Counted from the first letter of the stretch, positions 806 to 27,406 are shown. The stretch is 32,679 nt of DNA from an uncultured Chloroflexia bacterium (GCA_963765765.1 CAVXYC010000022.1:1-32679); one strand, 5' to 3'. Numbers and translations are program-made. Notes: generated by a model not told the origin, from the sequence alone.

Positions 806-1603
806 GTGGGTATCGTCACGTCACCGGGCGCGAGCTATGGCTGGCGCGCAACCGTTGGATTCATTCTTCCTGGCGACAGTTCAGCCGAAAACAGCACGTT
901 CGAGTTCTATATGATTGCGCCTCCTGGGGTGATGATGTCTCATGCCTCGCTCCGTGTCGAAGGAATGAAGCAAGAGTATTTCGATGCGGCTATTGGCCGG
1001 GCAGAAGATGCTGTCAGGATCCTGCTCGAAAGCGGAGTCGACTCTATTGTTGCGGCTGGTGTGCCTCCCATCATCACTCATGGATGGGGATTCGAGGCTG
1101 AAGTTCTGGCGAAAGTAAAGGCTCTGACGAGCCTGCCAGCTATCACCGACATCGGCGCATGCATCGAGGCAATGCATGCACTGCAAATGAAGCGGGTCGT
1201 AATGCTGACCGGCTTCAATCCCGAGCGCTACGGCGATGAGATGCACAACTATCTGACCGACTACGTCGGCCACGCTGAAATTGAAGTACTAGCATCTGAT
1301 TTCGTTTATACATCTCCCCCGACCGCGGTCAGGCGCGTACCTCTTGCAGTACCTTATCGGGCCGCCAAGACGCTCTATCGCTCCGTTGACTCTGCGGATG
1401 GTATCTGGATCACAGGCGGATTCATGCCGACGGTGGGGATGATTGATGCTCTTGAGCGGGACTCGGGTGTGCCGGTTGTAAGTAGCAAGCAGGCGCTCGC
1501 GTGGATTGGTCTTCGTATGGCCGGCATTCGAGATCGCATCGAAGGCTTCGGGAAGTTGTTCGAAAAGGACTGGCCACCAACCTCGAAGTACTTCCAAGGT
1601 TAG
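806..1603 (+). CDS. maleate isomerase/arylmalonate decarboxylase-like (Asp/Glu racemase fold) protein, paralogue A1, lacking catalytic Cys
   Basis: Intact 265-aa ORF with GTG start after AAGGAGG. Motifs GWRATVGFILP, PPGV, DGIWI, LERDSGVPVVSSKQA, GFGKLF. Confidence 0.85.
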   Translation: MGIVTSPGASYGWRATVGFILPGDSSAENSTFEFYMIAPPGVMMSHASLRVEGMKQEYFDAAIGRAEDAVRILLESGVDSIVAAGVPPIITHGWGFEAEVLAKVKALTSLPAITDIGACIEAMHALQMKRVVMLTGFNPERYGDEMHNYLTDYVGHAEIEVLASDFVYTSPPTAVRRVPLAVPYRAAKTLYRSVDSADGIWITGGFMPTVGMIDALERDSGVPVVSSKQALAWIGLRMAGIRDRIEGFGKLFEKDWPPTSKYFQG

Positions 1604-1656
1604 TGGAGTAAACAGCAGCATACTTCACGAGCTACTGAAGCATGCTGCTGTCTCCA
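1604..1656. terminator. long hairpin between convergent genes (possible bidirectional terminator)
   Basis: Paired arms TGGAG/CTCCA, ACAGCAGCAT/ATGCTGCTGT, CTTCA/TGAAG immediately after the A1 stop codon. Confidence 0.5.
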
Positions 1657-1709
1657 TGGCGAAAAGGATCGTGAATACGGCTCAGGACACGTGATGCAGA
1701 ACGGGGATA

Positions 1710-2460
1710 TTAGTACGCGCGGAAAAGCCGTCCAAACCCTTCTATACTCTCGTGTATTCCTACGCATCGCAGGCCCGCCCACATCAGAGCCTGGGCGCTC
1801 GTCACGACGGACACACGCAAATCGCGCTCGAGATCGTCGATCACCCCGACGCTTGGTGTGCTGGCTTGGGTGAGCCAAATCCCATCAACGTCGGATGCGT
1901 TCTCTTCGTAGAGACTTCGGGCTTTGCGATATATCACTTCTAAAGGTAGCGAGCTGGCATGGCGCGTCGTTTGTAGCTTGCGCAGTCGCCACAATGTCGA
2001 TTCCTGCGCCCTGCATATAGCTCTGCATATGGGCAATGATCTCTTCGCTGAACGCGTTGCCCACCATAACCACCGATTTCAGGCCTAGAGCCCGCATTGC
2101 TTTTACCGAGGCTCCCGCGTCGGTGATGAGAGGCACTGAGGTAACCTCTCGAATTCGCGCCAGGACCTCGTCCTCGTATCCCCACCCGTGGGTCACGATT
2201 GGAGGTACTCCTGCCTGGAGAATCACATCCGCGCCACGCTCAGCGATCATGCGGATGGCCGGTTCCATATTGGCGACCGCACGGTCGTACTGGGCCTGGC
2301 CCAGTCCAGTCATTCCGAGTCCGGTAATAACAAGCTCAATCCCCTGCGGCGCCATCAGGTAGAACTCGTGAACATTCGTATCCGCGACGATCGATGGAAA
2401 TACCATGCCGATTCGGGCGCGCCAGCCGTACGCGGCTCCCGGGGAATACCTGATGCCCAC
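1710..2460 (-). CDS. maleate isomerase/AMDase-like protein, paralogue B1 (frameshift near 1965)
   Basis: GTG 2460 after GGGAG. ORF 1885..2466 (PGAAYGWRARIG..QAGVPP) joins ORF 1710..2036 (DGIWLTQAS..VVTSAQA..GFGRLF). Confidence 0.8.
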
Positions 2461-2516
2461 TCGCAACTCCCATTCTAGAAAAGTAGCGCGCCTTCAACTC
2501 TGACGGCTCAGAGGAT

Positions 2517-3578
2517 CTACGCGAGCGCGTAGAAATGCCGAGCGTTCTCACTCACGATCTTTGACACGACGCCTGGCCGTAGCTTTCCGCTCCTCCCCCA
2601 GTCGACCACCACCTCATGGGCCTTGAGCTCACCCGATAGATCGCCATGCGCGTAATCCGTCCCGATCATGATGTTGTCCTCGGCGCCGTACTGATCCACA
2701 AGGCAGGCGACGTCGTCTTCGGTATCGCAGGTAACGAAAAACCGATGGTATTTCAAGAACCCGGCTTTGAAATCAGGGATCGGGTATTTAGAAGATCCAT
2801 CCCTCATGCCGAGCTGCTTGAGCAACAGCGGAATCCACGACGCGCCCGCCTCGATGAAGCCGAAGCGCAAGGTGGGGAACCGTTCCGGAATCCGAGCCTG
2901 GGCCAGGGAGTGGAACGCGGCTAGTACGTTGTAGAACTGCATCGAGGCGCTCTCGCTTGCGTTCGAGACGTTGTTGCCGTCTCCAGTGTGGAAGCAGATA
3001 GGCATGTCGAGACGCTCTGCTTCCGCATAGAGAGGAAAGAAGTAGGGGTCGCTTGCGGGGCGGTTGTATTCCACCCCCTTTTTCATGACAGCGCACGCAC
3101 CATTGTGTCGTGCCCACTCCATGTCTTTGACCGCGCGATCCATCGTCAACACTGGTGGAAGGTATGCCCAGCGCAGCCGGCCGTTGGCACTGCTTGTTCT
3201 CGCCGCCAACCACCGATTGTAGGCTCCGTGCACGGCTACCTCGACTTCCGGCTCATCCGTGACCACGTGAATGAACATGGTGGGGTAAATGATCTGTACA
3301 TCGAACCCCATCTCATCCATATGCTTCAGGCGAGCACCAACGTCTAACAGCTCTCGAGTCGCCTCAGTTGTTCCAGTCTGAACGTCGTCGCGATCACGCT
3401 TCAGCCGTAATTGCCCGGCCACCATCCAGAGTTTGTGCGGACGCTTATCGCGCGCCAGGAATCCCTTACCGTTCGGTGGCTCCAAGAGGTAAGGCTTGTA
3501 GCGCGCTTCCTCTGGCAACACGTAGTCCCATGTTTCGATGGTTTCGTCCACATGAGCGTCGGCATCAATAAAGCCCAT
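2517..3578 (-). CDS. amidohydrolase_2 family metallo-hydrolase/decarboxylase (copy 1)
   Basis: Intact 353 aa with IDADAH, YNRWLA, FFPLYAEAERLDMPICFH, FIEAGASW, GTDYAHGD, ENARHFY. Confidence 0.85.
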   Translation of the reverse strand: MGFIDADAHVDETIETWDYVLPEEARYKPYLLEPPNGKGFLARDKRPHKLWMVAGQLRLKRDRDDVQTGTTEATRELLDVGARLKHMDEMGFDVQIIYPTMFIHVVTDEPEVEVAVHGAYNRWLAARTSSANGRLRWAYLPPVLTMDRAVKDMEWARHNGACAVMKKGVEYNRPASDPYFFPLYAEAERLDMPICFHTGDGNNVSNASESASMQFYNVLAAFHSLAQARIPERFPTLRFGFIEAGASWIPLLLKQLGMRDGSSKYPIPDFKAGFLKYHRFFVTCDTEDDVACLVDQYGAEDNIMIGTDYAHGDLSGELKAHEVVVDWGRSGKLRPGVVSKIVSENARHFYALA

Positions 3579-3612
3579 TTCAACTCACCTTAAATGGCAA
3601 GGAATGTCCGCG

Positions 3613-3641
3613 AGAATAGCACCGCCGGTTCACCGAGTCAA
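3613..3641 (-). promoter_or_regulatory. sigma70-type promoter of the amidohydrolase-B1 unit
   Basis: Minus strand TTGACT, 17 bp, TATTCT with extended -10 TG. Confidence 0.6.
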
Positions 3642-3707
3642 TCGGATGCGCGATCAACTCGGACTCAGCAAGATAACTCCGCACGCCGCTGGAAATCGCC
3701 CAGCTTT

Positions 3708-3992
3708 TCAGCCGGATGCTGAGACATCGGGCGCTACGTGTCCCTTCATTCGGAGAACGTAAGTTTCGGGGGTGAGTCCAGCGATTCCGGCTCTCGCGAG
3801 TCGGCTTAGCAGATAACCGTGCGCGCCAAGGTCGTGCAGAGTCCGAACGTCACCCCTAAGCAGCGCAGTTCGCTCGGCGTCGGTAAGCATGAACTCCTGA
3901 AGTGTTGCCGCGGGATCGATCTTCAGGCGCTCTCGAAACTCGTCATCTCTACCAAGCTGCCGGCAGATCTTCAGTATTGAATAAACGCTCAT
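3708..3992 (-). CDS. LigA-like small subunit of aromatic ring-opening dioxygenase
   Basis: ATG 3992 after GAGGAG. FRERLKIDP..LTDAERTALLRGDV..LGAHGYLL matches the LigA pattern, and the gene lies directly downstream of the LigB-like gene. Confidence 0.7.
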   Translation of the reverse strand: MSVYSILKICRQLGRDDEFRERLKIDPAATLQEFMLTDAERTALLRGDVRTLHDLGAHGYLLSRLARAGIAGLTPETYVLRMKGHVAPDVSASG

Positions 3993-4055
3993 GTGAGGCT
4001 CCTCGCGTTGTGTTGGGATGATCTTCCCTGCTTCCAAACGTGTCTGGTCTGCTCA

Positions 4056-4878
4056 TCAGGCTATGTGCCATGCGGCGTACGCATGCCCAGCATGAGACTG
4101 CTGCTCGAGGAAGCTGGGGCGGTGTTCGCCGATCGCACCCAACATGGCGATCCAATTGAGTAGCTCACCGCCGACGTTTCCCGCTTTTACCAACCGATCG
4201 GTCGTCGCACGCGCAACCAAGTCCTTGAGAGCGGCGTGTTCCAGTGCCTCCATGATTGACTGGACCCATTCAGGGTCAGGGTAGCTGTTCATCTGTCCCG
4301 GAGCCCCGGATGCCGCCGATGTCCAATGAAAAGCTGCCACTTCCAAGAACGCCAACTCGCATTGCTGAAGGCCATGATTCCACGGCGCTTCGTACCGCTC
4401 CTCCCAACGCATAACAGCGATCCGCCCTGGGTAACGGCTCCACAATACCTGCCAGAAAGATCGGGACGATGGGAGTGCGCATCTGCGGGAGGAGGAAATG
4501 GAGGGGAACCAGAAATGAGTGATCGAGATCAAATTCCTGGGCAACGCCGAGATCGAAAGACTGTCCGATACCCGTCGCGCGAATGTGAGCACCAAGCTCT
4601 GCATCAACGGGCACAACATAGCTCGGCATTCGAGTCTGGTCATTGGGCCCGGCCGCCTGGTCAGTGATACCCACGCTCAGGAGCGGCAGATTGTCCAGGA
4701 AGAAGGTATTCATGTGATCAGAGCTAAAGCAGACGAGCACGTCCAGCTCCGATTTCGTCACACGATCGGCTACGGCGTCATAGAGCTTGGCAACCTCCGA
4801 ATTCGGACCTTCTCGACGCACCAAGTCGGGATAGTTCGGATTGTGTGGTACACCAAACCCGGCAACGATCTGCGCCAT
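4056..4878 (-). CDS. LigB-family (class III) extradiol dioxygenase catalytic subunit (frameshift near 4305-4335)
   Basis: MAQIVAGFGVPH, SDHMNTFFLD, LDHSFLVPL, then in the next frame PDPEW..AGNVGGELLNWIAMLG. Confidence 0.8.
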
Positions 4879-5353
4879 TCTCAGACCTACCTCAACACTT
4901 AGTGGTTGCTGTGCTAAGTATGTGCCACGCGGGCCCCGGTGAGATCGCGCTGATAGAAGGCGCTGGACTCCCTAAGTCTCCGGTCCGCCGCACGCAACTT
5001 CCATTAATTCCCGCTCATCCACTAGTTCACGCGCTCAGTAGCAACCCAATAGTACATCCAGATCTGACAGGCATACTGCCTTAATCTGCGAACGATCTCT
5101 CCATCCTGCTGCTGGGCAGGTTGCCAATCACTCGGTTAACCCGTCCTGCAATGGAGGCGTCGGGAATAACGCAATCTCAGATTGTCGGGTTCTGAGGCAG
5201 TCGAACGTGGGGTGTATGATTTGGATTCAGAAAAGTCCCGACCGGTCTCGACTGCATTCGATCGGGGTTAACGCGCGACCTACGTAATAGCGATAGTTCG
5301 TCGGCCTCCCGCGGGCGGGCCAAACGACACGCTCGTTGCGACCAAAGGCGATC

Positions 5354-6468
5354 ATGACGATTTCTGACCACTGGCAAACGATTCCCGACATTGTTCAGGC
5401 CGCTCGGGCTGCTATGCCGTCGCCCCTCTGGCAGTTCTCCGGTAGTGGTCCCGAATCGGAAATTAGCCTGAGACGGAATCGCGCTGCGTACGATCGCCTC
5501 GCGTTGCTCCTCGCTTGTTACGCGATGTAAGTTCGAGGGATCTCTCGACGACGGTGCTTGGCCATCGTTTGACTCTGCCCGTGATGCTGGCTCCGATCGG
5601 TTTGATCCAGCTATTCCATCCGGACGGCGCGGTGGCGCAAGCGAGGGTTGCAGACCGTGCCGGCACGATCACCTTCATAGGGACTAATTCTGAGCCCGGA
5701 CTCGAGGACGTTCGTGCCGCTTGCCGAGGGCCTATCGTCTTCCAGCTTTATACCTATGGTGATCGCGATTGGATTCGTAGATTTGTGCAACGCGTGGAAA
5801 ACGCTGGGTATGATGCGATCTGTCTTACCGTTGACTGCCCCGACGCGGGCCTGAGAGATCGCTATCTTCAGAACGATTTCGAGGATCGTGCACGAGGCGG
5901 CAAACGTCCGAACGTTGAGCCCATGCCAACTGTGGTGAATCGCTCAGAACAAAACGACTATCTCGGACGATTTACCTGGGACGATCTAGCCTGGCTACGT
6001 GAAAACACGCGCTTACCACTGATCCTCAAGGGAATCCTTTCACAACATGACGCCAAACTCGCCGTGGAGCACGGCGTCAACGTGATCCATGTGTCCAATC
6101 ATGGAGGAAGGCGACAAGACCAGCTACCTGCGACGCTGGACGTGCTTCCTTCAATAGTCAAAGCCGTAGACAGTCGTGCCGAGATCATCTTCGACGGCGG
6201 AATCATGCGCGGCACGGATGTAGTTAAGGCATTGGCCCTAGGGGCTCAATCAGTTCTGATTGGCAAATTGATGATGTGGGCACTCGGCGCTGGGGGCGAT
6301 GAGGGGCTGTGTCGGGCGCTCGAAATCCTCTCAAGGGAGATCGGCGCTACGATGGCGAACGTTGGGGCCGCGACCATCTCAGATCTCACCCCAGATATGG
6401 TCATTCCCAGTTTCGATCCACCCATCACACCGTGGCCTGTGGAACCGATGTCGCTGCGCGAGGCCTAG
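5354..6468 (+). CDS. FMN-dependent alpha-hydroxy acid oxidase/dehydrogenase (frameshift near 5510)
   Basis: SLRRNRAAY, LRDVS, LAPIG, FQLY, LTVD, LKGI, VSNHGGR, DGGIMRGTDVVKALALGA. Confidence 0.85.
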
Positions 6469-6478
6469 GGCACCGGAC

Positions 6479-7246
6479 CTACCCGGCCGCTGACTCCCTA
6501 GCAAACAGGCGGCCGAATCCTTGAATAGGTTCGTGAATACCGGCGGTCCGCAAGCCGGCCCAGGCCAGCGCTTGAGCGCTCGTAACTACTGGTACACCAA
6601 GATCTTCCTCAAGGGCTTCAATGACACCCACGCTCGGGATATTGGCTTGCGTCAGCCAGATGCCGTCAGCCTGGCCCCTGTGTTCCTGATAAAGCTTCCT
6701 CGCGCCCCGAAAAACAACTTCCAACGGCGCGCAGCCTGCGCTGGGCGAGCGGACATTCGCTAGCTGACTGTTCGCGACAAGCTCGATCCCCGCTGACTGG
6801 AGATACCGGCGGATATGCTCGACGAGCTCTGGATTGTAGGAGTTGCCCATCATCACGATCGATCGAAGCCCCACCACGCGCATTGCCCTGATTGATGCCC
6901 CAACGTCGGTGATGAATGGAATTGACGTCAGCTTGGCGACCCGTGTGCGGACCTCGTCTTCGAAACCCCATCCATGCGTCACGATCGGGGGCACCCCCGC
7001 CTGAAGTATGACATCGGCGCCATGTTCCACTACTCGGGCGACACACTCGTCGACCGCGGCGATTGCTCGGTCATACCCCTCCTGATTCGTGACGGTGAGA
7101 CCTAACGATGACAAAATGAGCGTTACTCCCGGCGGTGCCATCAGATAGAACTCGTGGATGTTGGTGTCCGCAACGACTGGTGGGACGAGTAGAGCCACTC
7201 GAGCACGCCAGCCGTATGAAGCGCCCTGTGAGTACGGGATCCCCAT
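6479..7246 (-). CDS. maleate isomerase/AMDase-like protein, paralogue B2
   Basis: Intact, ATG 7246 after GGAGG. GASYGWRARV, QAGVPP, DGIWLTQAN, VVTSAQA. Last gene of the Dpp-type operon. Confidence 0.85.
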   Translation of the reverse strand: MGIPYSQGASYGWRARVALLVPPVVADTNIHEFYLMAPPGVTLILSSLGLTVTNQEGYDRAIAAVDECVARVVEHGADVILQAGVPPIVTHGWGFEDEVRTRVAKLTSIPFITDVGASIRAMRVVGLRSIVMMGNSYNPELVEHIRRYLQSAGIELVANSQLANVRSPSAGCAPLEVVFRGARKLYQEHRGQADGIWLTQANIPSVGVIEALEEDLGVPVVTSAQALAWAGLRTAGIHEPIQGFGRLFARESAAG

Positions 7247-7300
7247 CTGTTCCTCCTGCATGTCCCGTGATTCCTCTTCGCCCGTTGGTCGTCTGTATCG

Positions 7301-8236
7301 TCACCGGCCTCGCAGCTTCGGGTCCAGAATATCTCGGATTGAGTCGCCCAGAAAGTTGAAAGCGAGGACCGTGGCGCTCAAAGCGACCGCTGGAGAGAGT
7401 AGGAGCCAGGGAGCAACCAACATGTATTGCCGCCCATCAGCGGTCAGCATTCCGCCCCAGGTGGCCAGAGGCGGCGGCGCCGCGAGCCCCAGAAAGCTCA
7501 GTGTGGACTCCGTAACGATCGCGGCCCCAATGCTCGTCGAGAACACGATCGTGGTTGTCGCCACGATATTGGGCAGGATGTGCTGAATAAGAATCCGGAG
7601 GTCTCTGGCACCTACCGTTCGTGCTGATTCGATGTACTGCTCCTGCCTTACCGAGAACACGTCGCTCCGAATGATCCGATTCGCCCGTGGAATCTGAGTG
7701 ATTCCGATTGCGAGCGCCGTCACGCTTAAGTCCTTGCCAAATATCGCCACCAACATCATCGCGAGGATGAGCGTCGGGATTGCCTGCATGGAATCGGTGA
7801 TCCGCTGAACGACCAGGTCCAGAGGGCCGCCACGATACCCGCAGATAACGCCCAGGATCAGCCCTCCCAGGGTCCCTACCAGCACTGCGCCCACTCCAAC
7901 GCCAAGCGAGATTCGTGCGCCGAAGATAAGTCGACTGAGCACGTCACGACCTTGACCATCGGTGCCTAACCAGTGGACCATCCCTGCTTGATCCACAAAT
8001 CCTGGCGGTTGCAGCGAATCCCTGATCGATTGTTTGAGCGGATCCTGCGGCGCCACAGCCTCCGCAAACAGCGCGCAGAACAAAACCACCAGAAGCACGC
8101 AGGAGGAGGCTGCCCCAAGAGGTTGGTCCTTCAGGATCCGCCAGGCCGCCGACCGCTTCTTGGGACCGACCCGGACCGGAACGGGAAGAGCCGATGGCAG
8201 AGCAAGCTCGTGCGCCTGACCTTGGGCTTGAACCAT
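7301..8236 (-). CDS. peptide/nickel ABC transporter permease (DppC/OppC-like)
   Basis: HWLGTDGQGRDVLSRLIFGARISL, YIESARTVGA (EAA loop), HILPN, FNFLGDSIRDILDP. Confidence 0.9.
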   Translation of the reverse strand: MVQAQGQAHELALPSALPVPVRVGPKKRSAAWRILKDQPLGAASSCVLLVVLFCALFAEAVAPQDPLKQSIRDSLQPPGFVDQAGMVHWLGTDGQGRDVLSRLIFGARISLGVGVGAVLVGTLGGLILGVICGYRGGPLDLVVQRITDSMQAIPTLILAMMLVAIFGKDLSVTALAIGITQIPRANRIIRSDVFSVRQEQYIESARTVGARDLRILIQHILPNIVATTTIVFSTSIGAAIVTESTLSFLGLAAPPPLATWGGMLTADGRQYMLVAPWLLLSPAVALSATVLAFNFLGDSIRDILDPKLRGR

Positions 8237-8307
8237 TCGAACTACCTGGCGCGGGACATTAGTCTTGCCAATGACCTCGGATTGATACGTCTGTCACGAT
8301 GCATGAT

Positions 8308-9264
8308 CTATCGATATTGAATTCGCGGATCCAGCCACACGTAGCTGATGTCCACTAGCAGATTGACAAGCAGGTAGACGATAAGCAGGTAGATGACACA
8401 TGCCAGGGTCTGCGGAAAGTCACCGCGAAGAATTGACGTGAGCGTGAGCTGCCCCAGTCCGGGCAGCGAGTAAATTTGTTCGACGACGACGCTCCCTCCC
8501 AGGGTCGCTCCGAGTTGAGTACCGAGCACGGTTACCGCTGGAATCAAGGCGTTCCGAAATGCATGTCCGTAGACAACGCGCCCCTCCACCAGCCCTTTCG
8601 CACGCGCGGTTCGAACATAGTCGTTGCGGAACACTTCAAGCATGGACGATCGGAGAATCCGAACCTTTGTTGCGCTGACCGAGGCCGCCAGCGCCAGGAG
8701 CGGCAGCGATATCTGCGTGAGGTGCTTCCCAAGGTTCTCCCAGGGCGCAGCATATCCAATAGGTGGGGCCCATCCCCATAACATCGCTGGTCCCAGGAGC
8801 AGGACCGTTGCGATCACGAAATTCGGGATAGATAGTCCGATCACGGCGATGAATCGCGACGCGTAGTCGAACCAGCTGCCCCGGTTGGCAGCTGATATGA
8901 CGCCCAGTGGGACACCAATGGCAACAGCGATGATCATCGCGAAAAGCGTAATCTCGAATGTGACTGGCAGGGTTTCGACGATGTGCTGAACGACTGGCCG
9001 CCCCGATCCCCAGGATGTTCCGAGGCCACCTCGTACGGCACCCCACAGCCAGGTCACATACTGAATATGAATTGGCTTATCGAGGCCGAACTCCTGGCGC
9101 AGTCGTTCCCGCACCACCGGATCGTGCGCACCGGGACTGTTAAGGAGCTTCTCCTCAATGATGTCCACCGGCGCATACAGGCGGAGTGAGAAGAAAATGA
9201 TGGCGGAGGCACCCAGCAACACAGGGAACAGCGCCAGCACACGCCTGATGCAGTACTCAGCCAT
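8308..9264 (-). CDS. peptide/nickel ABC transporter permease (DppB/OppB-like)
   Basis: FGLDKP..QYVTWL, DYVRTARAKGL, HAFRNALIP, VNLLVDISYVWLDPRI. Confidence 0.9.
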   Translation of the reverse strand: MAEYCIRRVLALFPVLLGASAIIFFSLRLYAPVDIIEEKLLNSPGAHDPVVRERLRQEFGLDKPIHIQYVTWLWGAVRGGLGTSWGSGRPVVQHIVETLPVTFEITLFAMIIAVAIGVPLGVISAANRGSWFDYASRFIAVIGLSIPNFVIATVLLLGPAMLWGWAPPIGYAAPWENLGKHLTQISLPLLALAASVSATKVRILRSSMLEVFRNDYVRTARAKGLVEGRVVYGHAFRNALIPAVTVLGTQLGATLGGSVVVEQIYSLPGLGQLTLTSILRGDFPQTLACVIYLLIVYLLVNLLVDISYVWLDPRIQYR

Positions 9265-9315: not shown

Positions 9316-11000
9316 CTAGCACTGTGATTCGTCGAGCCATGCCTCGCTTATCCCGATGGCGGCAGCCGATGGATGGGTCGGCGGCATGTTGGCCACGCGG
9401 CAAGAGTAGAAGTGGTAGTAGATGAAGCTTATCGCCGGTATGTAGGGCATGCTTTCGAACATGCGATCCTGCGCGTCTCCGATAAGCTGCTTGCGCTTCG
9501 ACGGATCTAGTTCTCGGCGCTGGCTCTCGATCAACCTGTCGAGCTGCGGGTCGCTAAACCCTGTCCAGTTGCGGCTGTCGCCTGTGTAGGCCGTCCTGAG
9601 CCATCGATCCACAAACACCGACGATGGTGATTGGCCGGTCCACGCGGCTTCCCACCCGGCTTTTCGAAGATGAGAGATGTGCTTGCCGGTCCCTGATCCA
9701 CGAGCCCCACATCTATACCTGCAGCCAGAAGCTGCTGCTGTACCACCACTGCGTCGTTGATAAATCGGCTTCCCGTGGTGATCGTAAACTTTAACTCGCC
9801 GGGCCCAAATCCAGCGTCAGCAAGGAGCTTCTGAGCCTCCGCGCGATCTGTCTTGAACTTTTCTCGAATCTGGGGCTCCGGCCAGGCCGCATCGCCCGTC
9901 GCCAATGGCAGGAATCCCGAGATTACGGCCCCGCCACGGTTGTTAGCGATTAACTCGTCTCGATCAATGGCAAGCGAAATCGCCTTCCGAACACGCACAT
10001 CGTCGAAGGGCTTCTTGCGATGGTTCACCCACAGACTGATGGGATTGGCGGCAACATCATCAAACTTCTGTGTCTTCGGATTCCCTTGCTTGATCGCGTC
10101 TGCTTCCAACTTTCGGAATCCGACGTTCATGTTCAAGTCCAATTGGGCGGACCGCGCAGCCGCTACCTCGGCCGTGTAGTCTCCAAAGTTCACCGTGTGA
10201 ATTTCATCGATATATGGCGCCGGCCCTCTCCATTCTGGATTCCGTTCCACTATGACCATCTGGCCCGGCTTGAAGTCCTTGAGCATATAGGGCCCGGTTC
10301 CAATTGCCACAGTCTTAAAGTCGCCGAATTGCTCCTTCACTTCTCGAGGAGCAATCACATTGACATCATCGCCAAGCTTTCCTAGAAATTCCGCATCAGG
10401 CTCCTGAAGCCGTAGCACCACGGTGTAGGGGTCAGGTTCTTCGTGACTCACTGACGTCCAATACGAACGTAACTGGCCCGCCGCCTTCTGATACTCAATG
10501 GTCCATGCAACATCCGCTGATGTAAACGGCCGACCATTGACGGGCGGTTTGTTATGCCAGCGCGCGTCGTCGCGAAGATGCAGGGTCCAGGTAAGTCCGT
10601 CTGCTGATACATCCCATGATTTGGCAAGACTCGGCACCATGGCCGTGTCCTGGTAGTAGCAAGCTCGTGGGCGGACGAGCGTTTCATACACCTGAGAGAT
10701 CGTTTGAATGGATTGGCCGCCGCCAGTGACCAAGTCGAGGTTGGGTAAAGCACCCTGACCCTGTCCACCTGTGCGAATGAACTGTCCACCTCGCTTTGGT
10801 GTGCCAGATGAGCGCCAGTGTTCCTTGCCCGGCTCGCATTGGAAGCCGGATGGATCTTGTTGCACGTCCTTCGGGGCGGGAGCACTGGCAGTCGTTGACT
10901 GGCCGGTGGCCGACGGTCGGCCCGCAGGCGCGCAACTCAACAAGAGGCCTGCGCTGAGGACAAGTGGCATCAGTAAAGCGAGCGTCCGACGGTGCGTCAT
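9316..11000 (-). CDS. ABC transporter substrate-binding lipoprotein, family 5 (frameshift near 9645)
   Basis: ATG 11000 after GGAGG, lipobox LLLSC, PSLAKSWDVSADGLTWTLHLR, GTGPY, FDDVRVRKAISLAIDR. The C-terminus is in ORF 9316..9618. Confidence 0.85.
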
Positions 11001-11043
11001 TCTACGCAGCCCTCCAAACTCATTCACCAGGTGGACGCTGGCG

Positions 11044-11072
11044 AACGTACCACCGCCCATTCCGCCTGTCAA
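11044..11072 (-). promoter_or_regulatory. sigma70-type promoter of the Dpp-type operon
   Basis: Minus strand TTGACA, 17 bp, TACGTT with extended -10 TG. Confidence 0.6.
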
Positions 11073-11269
11073 GAAATTCAAATTGTTTCAGTAACCGTGA
11101 AGGAATCTCCGTGAATACTCCCAACTGTCCGATGCCCCCGATGAACGTCGCGACAAAGCTCGACAGGTCAACGGCTCCACATCAATAATGGGAGCGCATT
11201 TAGGCCACGGACCTTCTGCTGTGCTTCGGACGGCGGAGGGGCGTGCTTAAGCTTGGAGGAGCCAAGATC

Positions 11270-12065
11270 ATGCCTACCGCACCTGCCCCCGGGGCGAGCT
11301 ACGGCTGGAGAGCGTCAGTAGGGGTCATCATCCCTGGTCGCGTCTCCGATACGAATGCCTATGAGTTCTATGCGATGGCGCCGCCTGGCGTGATCATGGT
11401 CCACACGACCTTGGATGTGGGCGGCTCCAGCCAGGAACACTATGACCGGGCGATTGGGAACGCGGAAACAGCGGTGCGTGGGCTTGTTGAGCGAGGCGTT
11501 GATGCCATCGTTCAGGCGGGAGTACCGCCAATCGTCTCGCACGGTTGGGGGTTCGAAGCGGAAGTCCTCTCCAAGATAAAGCGGGTAACGACCGTTCCTA
11601 TGATCACAGACATCGGCGCATGCGTTGAGGGCATGCAAAAACTTCAGATGGGTCGAGTTGTCATGCTGACCGGCTTCAACCCAGACAGATATGGGAGCGA
11701 GATTCATGATCAGCTCATGAGTTACGTGGCGAACGCCGGGATCGAGGTAGTGGCCGACGATGCCGTGAGGACCACGCCACCTGAAGCCGTCCGACATGCG
11801 CCTCTCGCCGTTCCTTACCGAGCTGCAAAAGAGCTCTTTCGAAAGGCCGGGTCGGTGGATGGGGTCTGGATCACAGGAGCATTCATGCCCAGTGCCGGGC
11901 ATGATCGCCGCACTCGAAGATGATTTAGGTGCACCGGTAGTGGCCAGTATGCAAGCGCTGACATGGATCGGCCTACGTATGGCGGGCATACGGGACCGAG
12001 TCCAAGGATTCGGGCGGCTTTTCCAAGAGGATTGGCCACCCACCTCGCAGTTCTTTCAAGGCTGA
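11270..12065 (+). CDS. maleate isomerase/AMDase-like protein, paralogue A2 (frameshift near 11898)
   Basis: ATG after GGAGGAG. PGASYGWRASVG, QAGVPP, WITGAFMP. The C-terminus DWPPTSQFFQG matches A1 DWPPTSKYFQG. Confidence 0.85.
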
Positions 12066-12232: not shown

Positions 12233-13411
12233 ATGGTGAAACTGCAAGCATTCCCAAGGGCCGTATCTCTAGCGGCGCCGTCACTGGCCATACTGCTCAC
12301 GATCAGTGCCTGTGGGGGCGGGTCAACGAGCACTGGCTCGGCGCCAGCGAAAATCGATACTCCACCTCCGGCACCAGCGGCCAAAGCATCGACCACGGAG
12401 CAGGACTTTCCACGGCTTCGTTCCGAATTCGACACGGCGATTGTGCCCGCGGCGAAGAATGAAGGTCAGTTCACGTGGTACACCTGTGTCCAAGCGGAAG
12501 AGGCCGAGGGTAGAGTCAAGCATTTCAACCAGACGTACCCCGAGATTAAGGTCAACTACGTTTACCTGACACCAGCCGAAGCCGTGGAGCGCATCACCGC
12601 GGAGGCGGCCTCCGGCCGGGTCACCGCGGACCTTTACCAGTGTGCAGGCCAGACTGGTCGAATCCTCGGTTGGCGGGGGCTTACTGAACCGTACACACCG
12701 CCGAGCGCCGTTGACCCTTCGATCCCCTACAACTGGCCAGTGATGGGCGTGGAAGGAAGCTTGACGGTATTCCACATCGTCTTTTCCGGGATGATCATCA
12801 ACACAAAGCTGGTGCCGCAGGACAAATTCCCAAAGACATGGTGGGACGTTGTCCGCGATCCGTATTGGGTCGACCAACTACGCCAGGGCACCGTTCCAAT
12901 GAATGATCCGCGCTCACCCGGGTGGGGCGGCAACATACTCTACGTACTCAGTCAAGCGCAGGCCTCGGATTATGGAGAATCCTGGATTCGAGAGTTGGCA
13001 GCGCTAAAGCCGAGGCTGGTTGCCACGGCGGCAGGAGATGCAGACCTCGAGCGTGGCGAAGTCAATGCATTGCTGATCGGGGCAATGCGTTGGGACGCGA
13101 TCAAGCGTGGTGCCCCATTGACAACCTGGTGTCCCGAACCCGGCTGCATCACCAGCCAGTACTACCACACGCCGCTCAAGAACGCCCCGCACCTTAACGC
13201 CGCGAAGGTATGGGTGGAGTACTGGCTCACCAAGGATGCGCAACAGCACCTGGCTGACTGGGGCAATACGGTGGCTCGAGCGGATGTGCCGGTTCACCCT
13301 GAGCGGGATCTCAAGTCCCGCAAGCTCATGCTCTGGCCCACGGATGAGAGCGAGCGAGGGATTCTGGATACGATCAACTGGACTCAGCAATCCGGCCTGT
13401 TCAGTTACTGA
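12233..13411 (+). CDS. ABC substrate-binding lipoprotein (Fe3+/thiamine/polyamine-type cluster D)
   Basis: Intact 392 aa with lipobox ISAC, AAKNEGQFTWY, INTKLVP..PKTWWD, APHLNAAKVWVEYWLTKDAQ. Confidence 0.8.
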   Translation: MVKLQAFPRAVSLAAPSLAILLTISACGGGSTSTGSAPAKIDTPPPAPAAKASTTEQDFPRLRSEFDTAIVPAAKNEGQFTWYTCVQAEEAEGRVKHFNQTYPEIKVNYVYLTPAEAVERITAEAASGRVTADLYQCAGQTGRILGWRGLTEPYTPPSAVDPSIPYNWPVMGVEGSLTVFHIVFSGMIINTKLVPQDKFPKTWWDVVRDPYWVDQLRQGTVPMNDPRSPGWGGNILYVLSQAQASDYGESWIRELAALKPRLVATAAGDADLERGEVNALLIGAMRWDAIKRGAPLTTWCPEPGCITSQYYHTPLKNAPHLNAAKVWVEYWLTKDAQQHLADWGNTVARADVPVHPERDLKSRKLMLWPTDESERGILDTINWTQQSGLFSY

Positions 13412-15590: not shown

Positions 15591-16363
15591 ATGACAGCGA
15601 TGGCTAGCGCCGGAGCGGCATACGGATGGCGAGGTCGTATTGGATTCCTCCAGCCTGCAATGGCGAATCCGAACCACCCGCATGAGTTCTATCTCATCGT
15701 GCCCGAGGGCGTAACCATCAGTATTGCGAGCTTGCGCTCCTATGGTGATCCTGAGGGAGGCGAATTCCTGAATCCGGAATCGCTCAGGCTTCCCATGAGC
15801 CGCATACCGCAAGGAACGAAGGTCTTGGTTGCACAGGGCGTGGATGTCGTGGTCCAAGCCGGCGTCCTCACACAACGGTCGAGGGCTGGGGATACGAAGC
15901 GAAGCTGCGGGCCGAGGTGCGTGAAATTACAGACGTTCCGTTCGTCATTGATACACACTCGTCAATCGACGCCATGAAGACCTTAGGCATGTCCAAGGTG
16001 CTTATGGTGAGCCCGTTTCCGGAGAAGACCAGCGCACACGTCATTGAGTACGTCAGCCACGCTGGAATTGAGATTGTTCACGCGCATCGCGTCATGGTGT
16101 CGGAGTATGGCGGGCTCTATGGAATACCGCTCGGTGCCGTCTATCAAGAAGCGAAGAAGGCGTATCGTGGCGTAGGCGATGTTGACGGCATCTGGCTCCC
16201 TGGGGCGGCCATGCCCAGTGTGGCCGCCATCGATCCGCTCGAGCGTGATCTGGGACTGCCGGTCGTCAGCAGCAAGCAGGCCATGATCTGGGCGGCCCTC
16301 CGTGAGGCGCGGGTCGATTGTACGATCAGCGGTTACGGCAGCCTCTTTGAAGCGACGGAATAG
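15591..16363 (+). CDS. maleate isomerase/AMDase-like protein, paralogue C1 (1-bp deletion near 15866)
   Basis: ATG after AAGGAG. GAAYGWRGRIG and NPNHPHEFY. Restoring one C gives QAGVPHTTVEGWGYE, continuing to WLPGAAMP..VSSKQA. Confidence 0.85.
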
Positions 16364-16372
16364 GAGAACAGA

Positions 16373-17719
16373 ATGTTGAGGCGAGAAGACAACGAGCTCG
16401 TGACTCGGGTCGGACCGGGCACTCCCATGGGCACCTTGATGCGCGAGTACTGGATCCCGGTCTTGTTCTCAACTGAGCTAGCACAACCAGACGCCCCGCC
16501 GCTCCGCGTTCGCTTGTCGGGGAGAAGCCCATCGCGTTTCGCGATAGTGAGGGACAAATTGGCATGGTGGCACAGAACTGCCCACACAGGGGTGCTTCGC
16601 TCTTCTTTGGCCGTAACGAGGAAGCGGGACTCCGGTGCGTCTATCACGGCTGGAAGTTCAACGCCAGGGGGCTTGCGTGGACATGCCCAACGAGCCCGCA
16701 GAGAGTAACTTCAAGCACAAAGTGCGGGTGACCGCGTACCCATGCCAGGAGCGGAACGGCATCATCTGGACCTACATGGGTCCGCGTCAGAACCCGCCCT
16801 CGCTGCCCGCGTTTGAGTGGAACATGGTTCCCGAAGGGCACGCGTACGTCAGCAAGCGGGTCGCCGAGAACAACTGGCTGCAGGCACTCGAGGGAGGCAT
16901 CGACACGAGCCACGCGAACTTCCTGCACAAGTCGTTGGGCACCAAAGGTGGGAGCGGGTTTGGAGGGTCGGCGCCGCGCCGAACCAGCTCTGGTCTGGAG
17001 TACATGGCGCGAGACAGTCATCCGCGATTTGAGTGCTTGCCAACTGAGGGAGGCGTCTTGATCGGGGCCCGCCGTGAGGGCGACGCGGACAATTACTACT
17101 GGCGCATCAATCCGTTCCTGATGCCCTTCTACACCATGTTCCCTTCCACGGGGATCGATCCGTCGGCGAGCGGTCACGTATGGGTTCCTATCGACGACGA
17201 ACATACGCTCGTCTTGCACTTCACCTACCACCCAACCCGCCCGCTTGGCCCTGACGAGGTCGAGTACATGCGCTCCGGTCGGGACGGATTGGATGGTTTC
17301 CATCCGAATGCGAGTGGGTTCTTACCTGCGAGTGGAAGAGCCTTCGGATCCTGGTATCCGAAACTCAATCGAGACAACCTTTACGGCCTGGACTACGAGG
17401 TCCAGAAGACCCAGTTGTTTTGCGGATACCGGCGGGGTGGGCACAAGACTCGGCGACGCAGGAAAGCATGGGTGCCATCACTGACCGTACGCGCGAACAC
17501 CTGGGGTCAAGCGACGTCGGCATCATTTCCGCGCGACGCTTCCTGATCAATGCGGCGATTGCACATCGAGATCAGGGTGCACCTGCGCCGGGTGCCACGA
17601 ATCCTGAAGCGTTCGCCTTGCGACCCGCGGCCGTGCTGGTCTCGCGTAGTGGGTCAGTCTGGGAAGTCGCACCTGCTGCCACAGCCGTCAAGCCGGGGAC
17701 TAATTTCGCTGTAGTGTGA
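16373..17719 (+). CDS. Rieske non-heme iron oxygenase alpha subunit (phthalate 4,5-dioxygenase/LigXa-like; about 3 frameshifts)
   Basis: TRVGPGTPMG..YWIP start, Rieske CPHRGASL..LRCVYHGWKF, mononuclear site EGGIDTSHANFLH, QDSATQESMG, EHLGSSD. Confidence 0.85.
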
Positions 17720-20447: not shown

Positions 20448-20541
20448 TTCCGGCGCCATCGGCCCGTTAGGCCGCGAGTCGACTGGCGTGTGCCGGGCAG
20501 CGTCGAGCCGGCGCGTCCTTCCTGAGACATGGGGGACGCAC

Positions 20542-23488: not shown

Positions 23489-23619
23489 TTCACAGACCGG
23501 CCACTCGCTACTGCCGCCCTGAGGTACTGCGTTCGCACTCACGTGAGAGATCTCTGTCGCAGGAATGTCACGCGCGCAAGCCTGTGAGCACGCTGTTCCC
23601 TAATTGAGGAGGTGAGGAA

Positions 23620-25376
23620 ATGACGGCTTCTACGTCGAACCGATTCGGGTCCGATCTGATTGTGGACCTGATGAATCAGTACGAGCTCCCCTGGATCGCC
23701 TTGAATCCGGGAGCCTCGTATCGGGGGCTGCACGACTCCCTGGTGAACTATGGTGACAATCGCCCCGAGATCATCCTCTGTCCGCACGAAGAGATCGCAG
23801 TGTTCGTGGCGCTGGGATACGCGAAGGCGACCGGCAGGCCGATGATTGCGGCGGTTCACGACACTGTTGGCCTCCTACACTGTGCGCAGGCCGTCTACCA
23901 CGCCTATCTCGACCGCGTGCCACTTCTGCTGGTGGGCGGCACGGGCCCGCTAGATCCGGCCAAGCGCCGTCCCGGAGCGGATTGGATTCATACGGCCATC
24001 CCTCAGGCGCAACCGCTCCATGACTTCCTCAAGTGGGACCGGACGCCGCTCACAGCCCAGGAGGTGGTTGATTCGTTCGCGCGGGCATATCGAATCATGC
24101 TCCAGGAGCCACAAGGGCCGGTGTATCTCTGCTACGACGCTGGGTTCCAGGAGGAGCCGCTCGAGGAAGTGGTTGAGCTGCCAGACCCGGAGAATTCAGC
24201 CCTGGGACGCGCATGCAGGCTGATCTGACCGCGCTGGACGAGCTGGCCGACCGACTCCTGCAAGCCGAGCACCCCGTACTGATCGCAGGATACGCGGGAC
24301 GCAACCCGACTGCATTTCATGAGCTCGTGCGCCTCGCCGAAATCACCGGCGCAGCCGTGATGGACGAATACGACCGTCTGAACTTCCCTTCGCGGCACCC
24401 GCTCAACATCACCGGCACGGAGACCTCTACGCTTGCTCAGGCCGATCTCGTGCTCGCGCTTGATGTGAAGAACCTCTACGGTGCAATTACGAAGCACGAC
24501 GAGGACACCGCAAGCAATTCGTACCTTATCCCGTCATCCTGCAGGATTGCCGAGATTGGCTTCCGCGACGTGACGGTCAGCCGATGGTCCGATGAGTTTG
24601 CGCAGATTGTCCCGGTGGACATCCAGATACTCGCCGATACATCACTCGCGTTGCCGGAGCTCAATGCACGCATCATTTCACGGCTCACGTCGAGCTCAGG
24701 AGATCGGAATAGGGTGGCCAATCGAATTCAGGCGATCGGCCAGATTCATCAGGCAGCGCACGATCGGTGGGATCGTCAGGCGCGCGAGAATTGGGATGTC
24801 TCACCAGTTTCGATAAGTCGGTTAGCCCTTGAGCTGTGGGACGCTATCAAGGAAGAGGACTGGGTGCTCACGTCCAATACGCTGCGCAATTGGGCGTTGC
24901 GACTATGGGATTTCGATAAACCGGAGCGTTACCCCGGAACTACGGGAGGCATGGGTACGGGCAGTCAGGCCGGGGTCTCGCTTGGCGTCGCTCTGGCATA
25001 CCGTGGCACCGGCAAGCTCGTGGTGAATGTCCAACCAGATGGAGACCTGATGTTTGACCCGGGCGCACTCTGGGTAGCCGCCCATTCGCGCCTGCCGATG
25101 CTCATTGTGATGCTCAATAATCGATCGTATTACAACGACTGGGATCATCAGATCCGGATTGCTCGACGACGCGGTCGCCCGGAGGAGAACGCCTGGGTGG
25201 GCCAAGACATCAACGATCCGGCCCCCGACTTCGCCACCATGGCCCGGTCCATGGGCGTGCACGCGGAAGGTCCGATCGATAAGCCTGATCAAGTGGCAAG
25301 CGCTCTTAGACGAGCAATTGAAGTCGTCAAAGAAGGCCGTCCCGCTCTGGTGGATGTCATCACTCAAGCTCGATAG
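23620..25376 (+). CDS. thiamine diphosphate-dependent enzyme (acetolactate synthase/benzoylformate decarboxylase-like; frameshift near 24205)
   Basis: RBS GAGGAGG, LNPGASYRGLHDS, CPHEEIAV (catalytic Glu), PQGPVY, cofactor motif QPDGDLMF..MLNN, GRPALVDV. Confidence 0.85.
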
Positions 25377-25661
25377 CTCGACCTGCAGAGGAGACGACCG
25401 TTAATCAATCCATCGCAGGCATGAATGGGCGAGTGACGATTACCGACGCGGTAGTCGCCCAGGAATCGTGAAGGCGCTGACGGAGAATACTTAAGTCGCT
25501 CGAGTTACTGGGTCGGCTTGGTTGTATGCGCGCTCAGAAAATGAGGAAGCGGCTTTCCGGCCGCAACGTCCATTTCGCTTACCGATTCAATCGAGGGCGC
25601 ACGCGAATCGCGGAGAGCAACTGAAGCGCTTGATCTGGTAGGTGTTTTTTTTATTCCGCCA

Positions 25662-25849
25662 AATGCCATGCTCGGTCAGCGCCTGGACGATCCCGCTACG
25701 TACTTCGCCGCCATGACTCTACCCATGGGGTGCATGCCGAAGGCCGAATCGATAATGCTGGTCAACTGACGAGCGCACTCAGACGGGCAATGAAGTTTTC
25801 AAAGCAGGCCGCCCCAGTCCTTGTGGATGTCATGACTCAAGCTCGATAG
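25662..25849 (+). pseudogene. decayed 3' remnant of a second ThDP-enzyme gene
   Basis: Translates with indels as NAMLGQRLDDPATYFAAM..HAEGRIDNAGQLTSALRRA..LVDVMTQAR*, versus NAWVGQDINDPAPDFATM..HAEGPIDKPDQVASALRRA..LVDVITQAR* in the intact gene. Confidence 0.75.
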
Positions 25850-25945
25850 CTGAATTTCAAGGGAAACGCCCTTATCTTGGCTGTCTGCGCGAAGACACAA
25901 AGGTCGGCGAGTCGGCACAGACGCCTATTTTCCTTGCCAGCCTAC

Positions 25946-26345
25946 CTATTGAGTCGCGGTTTCTAAGTTTTCGGCGTGTACATCTGCTTTCAGGATGGCG
26001 AACACCTCGGGTTTAAGTGTCTTTGCTTCTTCAATGACCTTCCTGAGCGACTCGGCGGATTTCAAGCCGATATCAAGATTTCGCTTGGTCATCTCAGCCT
26101 GGAACGCTGGGTCGGCCACTGTGTCATTAAATTCCTTCCGGATCGCCGCGACGATGTTGTCGGGAGCGCGGGGGTAGCGCAAAGAGGCGTTCTCCAGAAG
26201 GGAGTTTGTTGTTGCCCTGGAGTAGGACCCGTTGATCGAGTGTGACTTTGACCACGTTGGCTACGTGGCGAGACCAAGGGTTGCGCCCCTGTGCCATGCG
26301 CCCAGCCATATGGTTCGGAGGGTTCTCAAAATAAAACAGCGCCAT
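25946..26345 (-). pseudogene. 5'-truncated remnant of a TctC-like binding-protein gene
   Basis: LFYFE..GRNPW..GERLFALPPR..DTVADPAF..IGLKS aligns with LFYFE..GKYPW..GQRMFALPPR..DTVADPAF..VGLKT of 27581..28823. There is no room for the N-terminal part. Confidence 0.7.
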
Positions 26346-26548
26346 CCACGCTGGACCCGCACCGGGCTAAAAGAGGGGCAGGGGCAATCTTCGAAAACCC
26401 GGACACGCGGCTTCAATGTCTTTTCGGGATTAGGAACTAGATTCTTGATTTTTTAACAAAACCTTCAGTATATGAAGACATTCCTGAGGGGCCAAAGCTT
26501 ATGAACCGTGGGGAGCGTACTCATGGGACGTGGTTCTTCGAATACTCG

Positions 26549-26577
26549 TTGACCACCAATTAGTCGGGTGTTATAAG
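26549..26577 (+). promoter_or_regulatory. sigma70-type promoter of paralogue C2
   Basis: TTGACC, 17 bp, TATAAG with extended -10 TG. Closely resembles the C1 promoter. Confidence 0.65.
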
Positions 26578-26633
26578 ATGGCACGTCCTGGGCCCACTCA
26601 ATAGTCAGGATGTCACAGAGGAGAGTGCCGCTC

Positions 26634-27406
26634 ATGAGTATGCTTGCAAATCCCCGGGGCCGCGTACGGTTGGCGAGCGCGGATTGGATTTCTCCGACCG
26701 GGCATGGCAAACCCGAACCACCCGCACGAGTTCTATCTGATCGTGCCCGAGGGAGTAACCATCAGTATCGCGAGCCTGCATTCGTTCGATGACCCAGCAG
26801 ACGAGTTCCTGAGCGCCACATCAATGAGCCGCCCGGTGAGTCGGATTCCCGACGGAGTAAAGCTACTGGCAAAACAAGGCGTAAACGCGATCGTTCAGGC
26901 CGGCATTCCCCACATCACCGTCCAGGGGTGGGGCTTCGAAGAGAAGCTGCGTTCCCAGATTCGCGAGATCACAGACATTCCGTTCGTTATGGACACGCAA
27001 GCATCAATCGAAGCCATGAAGGCCCTGGGCATGTCACGAGTACTCATGGTGAGCCCGTTCACCGAGCGCAGCAAGTGTGCACGTCAGCAAATATGTCGGC
27101 CACGCCGGAATCGAGATCGTGAGCGCACACCGCGTGTTGGTGGCGGAATACGGCGGCCTTTACGGAATTACGCTCGGGTCGGTGTACCAGGAGGTCAAGA
27201 AGGCGTACAGCAAGGTCGGGGACGTTGATGGCATCTGGCTGCCGGGTGCGGCCATGCCGAGCGTGGCGGTCATCGACCCACTCGAGCGGGATCTCGGACT
27301 TCCCGTGGTGAGCAGCAAACAGGCAATGATCTGGGCGTCCCTCCGCGAGGCACGGGTCAAAGATTCGGTCAGCGGCTACGGTCAACTGTTTGAAGCAGCG
27401 ATCTAG
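26634..27406 (+). CDS. maleate isomerase/AMDase-like protein, paralogue C2 (frameshifts near 26652 and 27070)
   Basis: ATG after GAGGAG. PGAAYGWRARIG, NPNHPHEFY, QAGIPH, WLPGAAMP, VSSKQA. Confidence 0.85.

Follow-up and report, generated by a model that had tools for sequence, protein, structure and literature searches.

Results

A cluster of six PF17645 genes

We analyzed a 32,679-bp stretch of DNA from an uncultured soil Chloroflexota bacterium (GCA_963765765.1, CAVXYC010000022.1:1-32679), hereafter the window, which is the complete contig C22 of a 6.49-Mb, 33-contig metagenome-assembled genome (MAG). It carries six homologous genes, g1–g6, of the Pfam family PF17645 (Amdase), the arylmalonate decarboxylase (AMDase)/maleate isomerase (MI) branch of the Asp/Glu racemase fold. 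All six were found where a preliminary description of this DNA had placed them: g1 (806..1603, plus strand, intact, 265 aa), g2 (1710..2466, minus strand, one frameshift), g3 (6479..7261, minus strand, intact, likely start 7246), g4 (11270..12065, plus strand, frame shifted by an extra G), g5 (15591..16363, plus strand) and g6 (26634..27406, plus strand, probably two frameshifts). Against a gathering cut-off of 25.9 bits, g1 and g3 score 84.9 and 90.9 bits, and the fragments of g2, g4, g5 and g6 score 25.7–58.8 bits, the pieces with enough sequence passing the cut-off. The whole genome has 28 PF17645 matches in about 20 loci; six of these loci lie within 32.7 kb, far more than chance would give, and therefore form a real cluster, as had been proposed.

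We used g3 as the reference protein, and residue numbering follows it. The AlphaFold2 model of g3, built from a 61-sequence alignment, has a mean pLDDT of 91 and consists of a pair of similar alpha/beta domains that enclose a cleft, the arrangement that defines the Asp/Glu racemase fold. A Foldseek comparison of this predicted structure placed g3 in the fold of AMDase (TM 0.87–0.89), MI (0.84–0.86) and the structural genomics entry 4IX1 (0.85). The intact genes are under purifying selection: between two haplotypes of this region (C22 and contig C27, see below), dN/dS is 0.05 for g1 (dS 0.99) and 0.16 for g3. In a Pfam scan of the six genes, no fused DNA-binding or signalling domain was found. 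On the reading that we favor, g1–g6 would be soluble, cytoplasmic and cofactor-free enzymes.

Absence of the catalytic cysteines

Proteins of this fold use either a single catalytic Cys or a pair of them, C76 and C194 in MI, and C188 together with G74 and a dioxyanion hole in AMDase (bioRxiv 10.64898/2026.01.14.699310 and PMC4996985). In g1–g6, site 1 reads AAGVPP (g1), QAGVPP (g2, g3 and g4), QAGV-break-H (g5) and QAGIPH (g6). Site 2 reads WITGG (g1), WLTQA (g2 and g3), WITGA (g4) and WLPGA (g5 and g6), and the Tyr loop reads TGF (g1 and g4), NAF (g2), NSY (g3) and SPF (g5 and g6). Our analysis reproduced every motif quoted in the preliminary description and bore out its central observation that both catalytic Cys are absent: neither loop of any of the six genes contains one, whatever the register.

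A profile of the 61 sequences aligned with the solved AMDase without gaps across both catalytic loops, and was also aligned with MI; neither alignment placed a Cys in the active site. Gly74 of AMDase, a feature shared with the six genes, corresponds to the nearly invariant G88 of QAG. Cys188, the sole proton donor of AMDase, is replaced by Gly in g1, g4, g5 and g6 and by Gln in g2 and g3, and by Gly, Gln, Ile or His across the clade described below. The dioxyanion hole of AMDase (T75/S76/Y126/G189) has also changed, to Val (Val, Ile or Thr across the 61 sequences), an invariant Pro, Phe (Tyr only in g3) and Ala, respectively. In MI, the first Cys (Cys76 in Nocardia farcinica; Cys82 in Pseudomonas putida, within YAC) aligns with the Gly of QAG/AAG. 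The second (Cys194/Cys200, within SACVQMPS) falls in a loop, T[G/Q]A.MPS, whose exact register against MI is ambiguous because it is one residue shorter, but which is Cys-free in any register. The altered TPY-type loop was likewise confirmed: its tyrosine is Phe in g1, g2, g4, g5 and g6 and Tyr only in g3.

Ordinary AMDase or MI chemistry could in principle persist if a Cys were recruited from elsewhere in the chain. Such a residue is at hand in g1 and g4: the first helical turn behind strand 4 has a Cys four residues past the invariant Asp (TDIGAC). In g2, g3, g5 and g6, however, Ala or Ser occupies this position, and the read-through proteins g1–g6 contain 1, 1, 2, 1, 1 and 0 Cys, respectively, none at a conserved column. 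The preliminary description was mistaken in suggesting that g2 has no Cys at all, since the copy in the window carries one in its C-terminal helix; the intact g2 counterpart on C27, like g6, has none inside the protein. With g6 and 26 of 120 close homologs (the best 120 of 477, see below) entirely Cys-free, a recruited Cys is contradicted, and we consider this explanation hardly credible. Without the Cys on which this fold normally relies, the group is left with either a different chemistry or a purely ligand-binding role.

The residues invariant in the 61 sequences are Y15, W17, R18, E36, F37, P42, G44, P90, P114, D118, P208, E217, Q229, W233 and G249. The group's own set of conserved polar-site residues comprises N33, E36, Q86, P90, D118 and Q229. 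In the secondary structure of the g3 model, N33/E36, Q86–P90, D118 and Q229 are located at strand C-termini or helix N-termini, and these residues may line the cleft. D118 stands where all Cys-bearing relatives have Thr or Ser.

A distinct and widespread Cys-free clade

A word-indexed search retrieved 477 homologs, and the loop counts for close homologs given here refer to the best 120 of these 477. None of the 120 has a Cys in either loop. Site 1 is QAGV in 86 of them, with other Q/x-A/S/T/P-G/A forms in the remainder, and site 2 is WITGA in 51, WITQA in 16, WIPIA in 14, WITHA in 11 and WLTQA in 6. The residue at the position formerly occupied by Cys thus varies from one subclade to the next and recurs inside each, which looks like the pattern of a specificity position. 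The same motifs in 120/120 close homologs from many samples rule out an artefact as the source of the odd motifs, in agreement with the earlier argument that the pattern is not a sequencing error.

An exhaustive profile search of a library clustered at 50% gave 5864 matches at E ≤ 1e-3; tightening the threshold to 1e-10 left 2601, and to 1e-30, 330. This wider group was sampled through 149 new representatives among 150 listed, 139 of which span both loops. Among the matches listed, 67 of the 139 carry a Cys at site 2 alone and 6 at site 1 alone, while 26 carry one at each site and 40 lack it at both.

We built a FastTree phylogeny of 170 rows (the six window genes, nine paralogs from the same genome, 131 representatives and every fifth close homolog, 24 in total), leaving out rows of fewer than 225 aa and those with gaps in the loops. 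The six window genes fall in one 35-row clade with a support of 100, in which every row is Cys-free. Its signature is QAG[VIT]P...GWGFE...TD, and we define membership by YGWR...EFY...QAG[VIT]P...GW[GD]...[TMI]D...W[IL][TP]xA..P[ST]...Q together with placement in the support-100 clade; all six window genes carry these motifs. They pair as g1/g4, g2/g3 and g5/g6 with database sequences between the pairs and are therefore old paralogs. One-Cys relatives surround this clade in the tree, and two-Cys forms branch deeper; the root and deep branching order, placed on two in-genome outgroups, are tentative. The Cys-free rows require at least 19 changes on the tree, counting starred branches only, and Cys loss is therefore recurrent in the wider group. 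The six genes had been proposed to represent an expanded subfamily with different chemistry or a binding role. The old and distinct Cys-free subfamily was recovered, but the loss of Cys is not unique to it, as the 40 wider relatives lacking both residues indicate.

Members of the clade come mostly from uncultured Dehalococcoidia and Binatia. We found 78 related loci in species-representative genomes, all of them uncultured MAGs. Chloroflexota contribute 45 loci (39 from Dehalococcoidia) and Binatota 19; the rest are mostly MAGs labelled 'delta'/Thermodesulfobacteriota, with one Haloarculaceae archaeon and two distant alphaproteobacteria. The source genome itself has eight core-clade loci. None of its 20 nearest genomes, several of them incomplete, gave a core-clade match above 175 bits (the window genes exceed 300), so the eight loci look acquired or unusually expanded within this lineage. 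At C23:61098-63777, three AMDase-fold genes are adjacent: the outer two have a Cys at site 2 (FFKCAHW and HFLCPHW), and the middle one is a frameshifted, Cys-free core-clade gene with QAGVPQ. Two sister-type Cys-free copies adjoin amidohydrolase-2 genes at C25:105077-106605.

Comparison with characterized relatives

The best sequence match of known structure is 4IX1 ('hypothetical protein OPAG_01669' from Rhodococcus opacus PD630; profile E 1.1e-33). It has the N-terminal YGWR, a Gly at site 1 and a Cys-less site 2 in common with the clade, but is only about 25% identical, has GQVGTPF in place of QAGVPP and lacks both GWGFE and the Asp of TD. AMDase (EC 4.1.1.76; Bordetella bronchiseptica, 3DG9, 3IP8 and 2VLB) shares the two-domain fold and PF17645; further likenesses are an expected lack of a cofactor and, according to PMC4996985, transporter gene neighbors. 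Against the NCBIfam AMDase equivalog NF052327, however, the window genes score 21.8–88.9 bits, and the cut-off is 225. MI (EC 5.2.1.1; N. farcinica 2XEC/2XED and P. putida S16 Iso 4FQ5/4FQ7) shares the fold and the MPS after site 2. The source genome encodes a canonical two-Cys MI (AYAC.../LSACVQMPS) elsewhere, at C19:183211-184062. To EutA of ectoine utilisation (TIGR02990), the window genes have only a weak match at the family level (54–58 bits against a cut-off of 318), and no ectoine genes lie near g1–g6 within the window. Because both the defining residues and the cut-offs failed, the window genes are not AMDase, MI or EutA.

The uncharacterized YGWR relatives with one or two Cys, which make up the bulk of the 5864 library matches, share YGWRAR, EFY, length and fold family with the clade. 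They form its sister and outer branches in the tree, including copies from the same genome on contigs C23, C25 and C2. Unlike the clade, they have TT or TS in place of TD and lack QAGVP and GWGFE.

No characterized member of the QAGVP clade was found in the PDB, and no paper on the Cys-free clade or 4IX1 was found in the searched literature, which did not extend to subscription-only papers and supplementary files. The characterized QAGVP homolog that would have spoken against novelty is thus missing from both sources. A SAR202 pangenome paper makes no mention of maleate, arylmalonate or hydantoin. The clade carries automatic names only: 'maleate isomerase' at JGI and 'maleate cis-trans isomerase family' in the protein Atlas. 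The view that Cys-free relatives are undescribed stands only in part, as 4IX1 is a solved, Cys-less structure; it is known, though, only as a 'hypothetical protein'. We conclude that the clade is a real, ordinary-looking variant of a known fold that has gone unstudied, rather than a system of a new kind.

Haplotype structure and frameshifts

C22:1-15521 aligns with the final 15.5 kb of C27 with 497 substitutions and 32 indels, and C22:23530-32679 aligns with the final 9.1 kb of C18 at 92.5% identity. Matching the ends of both contigs, C22 therefore spans the gap between them as a second haplotype or strain, and this duplication may explain part of the 6.85% 'contamination' of the MAG. Identity between C22 and C27 is about 98% in most 500-bp windows but 79–84% over 1001-2000, where the 3′ ends of g1 and g2 converge; this dip in an otherwise near-identical region looks like a recombination or replacement tract.

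Frameshifts interrupt four of the six genes in the window. In g2, two bases are missing near 1964 relative to C27, where the counterpart is intact (C27:235838-236641). The extra G at 11897 in g4 is absent from the intact counterpart (C27:245391-246194) and from an independent soil-metagenome contig (one contig, depth 3.1). In g5, there is a one-base deletion near 15868, and g6 is broken near 26655, in a CCCC/GGGG run, and near 27068; its counterpart at C18:199147-199981 is also frameshifted, at a different place. The assembly appears error-prone elsewhere: rpoB of the source genome (C20:324742-328773) is split into at least three open reading frames (ORFs; 351, 450 and 330 aa), its relatives having about 1170 aa, which signals frequent indel errors. 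Given the intact g2 and g4 on C27, the absence of the extra G elsewhere, the CCCC/GGGG run and the split rpoB, the frameshifts are probably assembly errors and not decay. Contigs from other samples cover the window thinly; among the frameshift sites, only 11897 is informative, and 15868 is unbridged. One X3 contig is gapped over g6. Relative to other soil-sample contigs, the window shows additional single-base indels at 16261, 16664-16673, 17825, 21252, 21365, 22098 and 22613, which suggests either further uncorrected indels in the transporter and oxygenase genes of the window or errors in low-depth contigs.

Broken genes on a contig that duplicates the ends of two others could also be read as decaying pseudogenes, or as sequencing artefacts, of ordinary MI or AMDase genes. 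We regard this as most improbable in view of the intact copies, the independent contig and the split rpoB, the low dN/dS (0.05–0.16), the identical motifs in the close homologs and the separate canonical two-Cys MI in the same genome.

Gene neighborhoods

The minus strand of the window contains two strings of genes. The first, in the order LigB-LigA-amidohydrolase-2-g2, consists of a LigB-type catalytic subunit (4056..4878; PF02900, 86.8 bits on 4276-4878) and a LigA-type small subunit (3708..4037; PF07746, 41.8 bits) of an extradiol ring-cleavage dioxygenase, followed by an amidohydrolase-2 (2517..3578; PF04909, 62.2 bits) located 50 bp upstream of g2. The LigB gene has a frameshift near 4303 and is intact on C27:238233-238922. 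The second string consists of a family-5 solute-binding protein (9531-11081; PF00496), two ABC permeases (8308-9264 and 7301-8236; PF00528 twice) and g3. Between the strings, on the plus strand, lies an FMN-dependent L-2-hydroxy-acid oxidase/dehydrogenase (5515..6468; PF01070, 341.7 bits).

Divergent from these, the plus strand carries g4, a family-1 solute-binding protein (12233-13411; PF01547/PF13416), an ABC permease (14118-15332; PF00528), g5, a LigXa-type Rieske oxygenase (16373..17546) that starts 10 bp after g5, and another solute-binding protein. The Rieske gene is frameshifted in its N-terminal part and matches PF19301 (LigXa_C) on 16635-17546. Farther along the same strand, g6 is located 1.2 kb downstream of a thiamine-diphosphate (ThDP) enzyme split into two ORFs (23620..25376; PF02776, PF00205 and PF02775), and a second amidohydrolase-2, also split, follows at 29116..29900 (PF04909 on both pieces). 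Solved structures of relatives of these neighbors are distant or generic and name no pathway. The nearest to the first amidohydrolase are the distant PtmU3 and unnamed amidohydrolases; the best for the hydroxy-acid oxidase are lactate, glycolate and hydroxymandelate oxidases; and none was found for the ThDP enzyme at E ≤ 1e-10.

Glutathione-, mycothiol- or cysteine-dependent maleylpyruvate isomerases use an external low-molecular-weight thiol. The window proteins could similarly be MI-type cis-trans isomerases that take an external thiol as nucleophile, a reading consistent with their MI-like fold, with the ring-cleavage dioxygenase genes beside g2 and with the Gly, a small residue, where each Cys used to be, which might leave room for a thiol. 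Nothing in our analysis points to a thiol cofactor, however; the Gln, His or Ile at site 2 of many members would leave no such room, and the features by which MI binds the second carboxylate are not traceable in the clade. This explanation is very unlikely.

To survey the neighborhoods more widely, we took a diverse, hand-picked set of 24 from the 78 loci and compared the 268 ORFs of at least 150 aa within 3.2 kb with Pfam. Solute-binding proteins occur in 9/24 loci (L001, L008, L011, L019, L021, L055, L069, L076 and L078), amidohydrolase-2 in 8 (L005, L007, L011, L019, L028, L037, L059 and L069), Rieske/LigXa in 7 (L005, L010, L024, L041, L055, L059 and L071) and luciferase-like monooxygenase in 3; a ThDP enzyme lies directly upstream in one (L049). 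The common theme is the uptake and breakdown of compounds that are carboxylated and often aromatic, with no universal partner. MmgE/PrpD was rejected as a general partner, as tblastn with a verified PrpD found it in only 23/78 loci, namely 21 syntenic Binatia-type loci (about 1.3 kb upstream on the opposite strand) and two distant alphaproteobacterial ones. The preliminary description had put the six genes forward as a candidate for an undescribed system. This did not hold: they are three old paralog pairs in different operons, and the gene is single in 73/78 related loci. An obligate heteromer of two paralog types was also rejected, tandem pairs being found in just 5/78 loci.

Several recurrent arrangements were observed. 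The Binatia-type loci (L013–L036, L070 and L073) show a conserved synteny that runs from a GMC oxidoreductase through MmgE/PrpD on the opposite strand and amidohydrolase-2 to the Cys-free gene, after which comes a luciferase-like monooxygenase. In the distant alphaproteobacteria (L077 and L078), the PrpD gene directly follows the AMDase-fold gene. Four Dehalococcoidia loci (L041, L045, L046 and L047) have an operon, all on one strand, in which a LigXa-type Rieske oxygenase is combined with two Cys-free genes in tandem and with a luciferase-like monooxygenase.

The transporter context bears on a further explanation, in which the proteins are non-catalytic ligand binders (pseudoenzymes). The two-domain cleft would be retained for binding a carboxylate; the protein might, for example, serve the adjacent ABC or TTT importers as an acceptor or sensor in the cytoplasm, or else partner an enzyme. 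The loss of both catalytic Cys and of three hydroxyl donors of the oxyanion hole is consistent with this idea, as are the positions of g3, g4 and g5 within ABC-transporter strings, the solute-binding-protein genes within 3.2 kb in 9/24 loci and the recurrence of Cys loss in the wider group. It is opposed by the clade-specific invariant Asp, Glu and Gln at cleft-forming positions, by the many old paralogs beside oxygenases and amidohydrolases, a setting typical of catabolic enzymes, and by the absence of fused DNA-binding or signalling domains. Genuine AMDases also adjoin TTT, TRAP and ABC transporters (PMC4996985), so transporter context is no argument against catalysis. On balance, we consider pure ligand binding rather unlikely, but it is the main rival of the enzymatic interpretation.

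Discussion

We propose that the members of the clade may be cofactor-free enzymes that carry out proton transfer or CO2 release on a carboxylated intermediate, with a carboxylate or water replacing the thiol. We assign this interpretation a probability of roughly 0.45. It is favored on account of the conserved polar residues at cleft-forming strand ends and of D118 in place of Thr/Ser. In this scheme, the carboxylate of D118 and/or E36, or a water molecule, would take the place of the thiol in a proton-transfer step, which may be an allylic or keto-enol isomerization or a decarboxylative protonation. The variable position formerly occupied by Cys would tune specificity. Each paralog would be adapted to a different carboxylated intermediate, which might be imported by the neighboring transporters or be made or consumed by the neighboring oxygenases and amidohydrolase-2 enzymes. 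The most concrete guess concerns g2, which ends the LigB-LigA-amidohydrolase string and might isomerize or decarboxylate an extradiol ring-cleavage product. More broadly, but also more tentatively, an invariant Asp/Glu pair may have replaced the Cys dyad in thiol-free enzymes whose paralogs, in uncultured Chloroflexota and Binatia, would link Rieske or extradiol oxygenases to amidohydrolase-2 enzymes by supplying missing steps as lignin-like or recalcitrant carboxylated organic matter is degraded; we hold this wider proposal to be possible, with somewhat poorer odds than the enzymatic interpretation as such.

Several points weigh against the enzymatic interpretation. The reaction class is a guess, because the clade comes without a characterized homolog, activity or ligand. 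The dioxyanion hole needed by both known chemistries is degraded, which a non-enzyme fits equally well. The lining of the cleft by the conserved residues is an inference from topology only, and YGWR, at the start of strand 1 and away from the cleft, is probably structural. The tree is a FastTree phylogeny only, rooted on two long in-genome outgroups.

The genomic context contributes further objections. The aromatic theme is broken in loci where the gene directly before the single clade member (L007 8016-8741, L010 8001-8729 and L024 7986-8726) is hydantoinase/oxoprolinase A+B, an amidase or a MetE-like (Meth_synt_2) gene, respectively; histidine-biosynthesis genes adjoin the L039 member, and some loci have nothing catabolic nearby. 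Catabolic families are greatly expanded in the source genome: there are 109 amidohydrolase-2 and 17 LigB matches, and the LigXa-type Rieske 5′ region occurs in about 30 paralogous copies. Adjacency in a genome packed with such genes is therefore weak evidence, and the amidohydrolase-2 association in particular is weakened by the roughly 90 such genes in this genome alone. In addition, the genome has a LigI-like/PrpF (LigU)/LigJ-like trio at C20:835350-838740, which contains its single PrpF-family gene, flanked by the second- and third-best-scoring amidohydrolase-2 genes of the genome. This textbook-looking LigI/LigU/LigJ-type cluster of the protocatechuate 4,5-cleavage pathway means that the textbook pathway needs no g2.

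As for the other explanations, an external thiol, pseudogenes or artefacts, and a recruited Cys are all unlikely, and the remaining probability belongs to something else.

The clade described here is natural, selected and widespread; it lacks every catalytic Cys of its fold, and its oxyanion hole has been rebuilt as well. Whether one considers the Cys-free clade or the 40/139 wider relatives without both Cys, the metagenomic label 'maleate isomerase' is largely a misnomer. If its members are enzymes, they would show a new way to achieve catalysis on a scaffold already in industrial use and would mark unknown carbon-turnover steps in abundant uncultured lineages of soil, groundwater and ocean. 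If they are binders, they would provide a clean case of repeated enzyme-to-binder conversion. The clade is of moderate to high interest for enzymologists and for annotators of uncultured Chloroflexota and Binatia.

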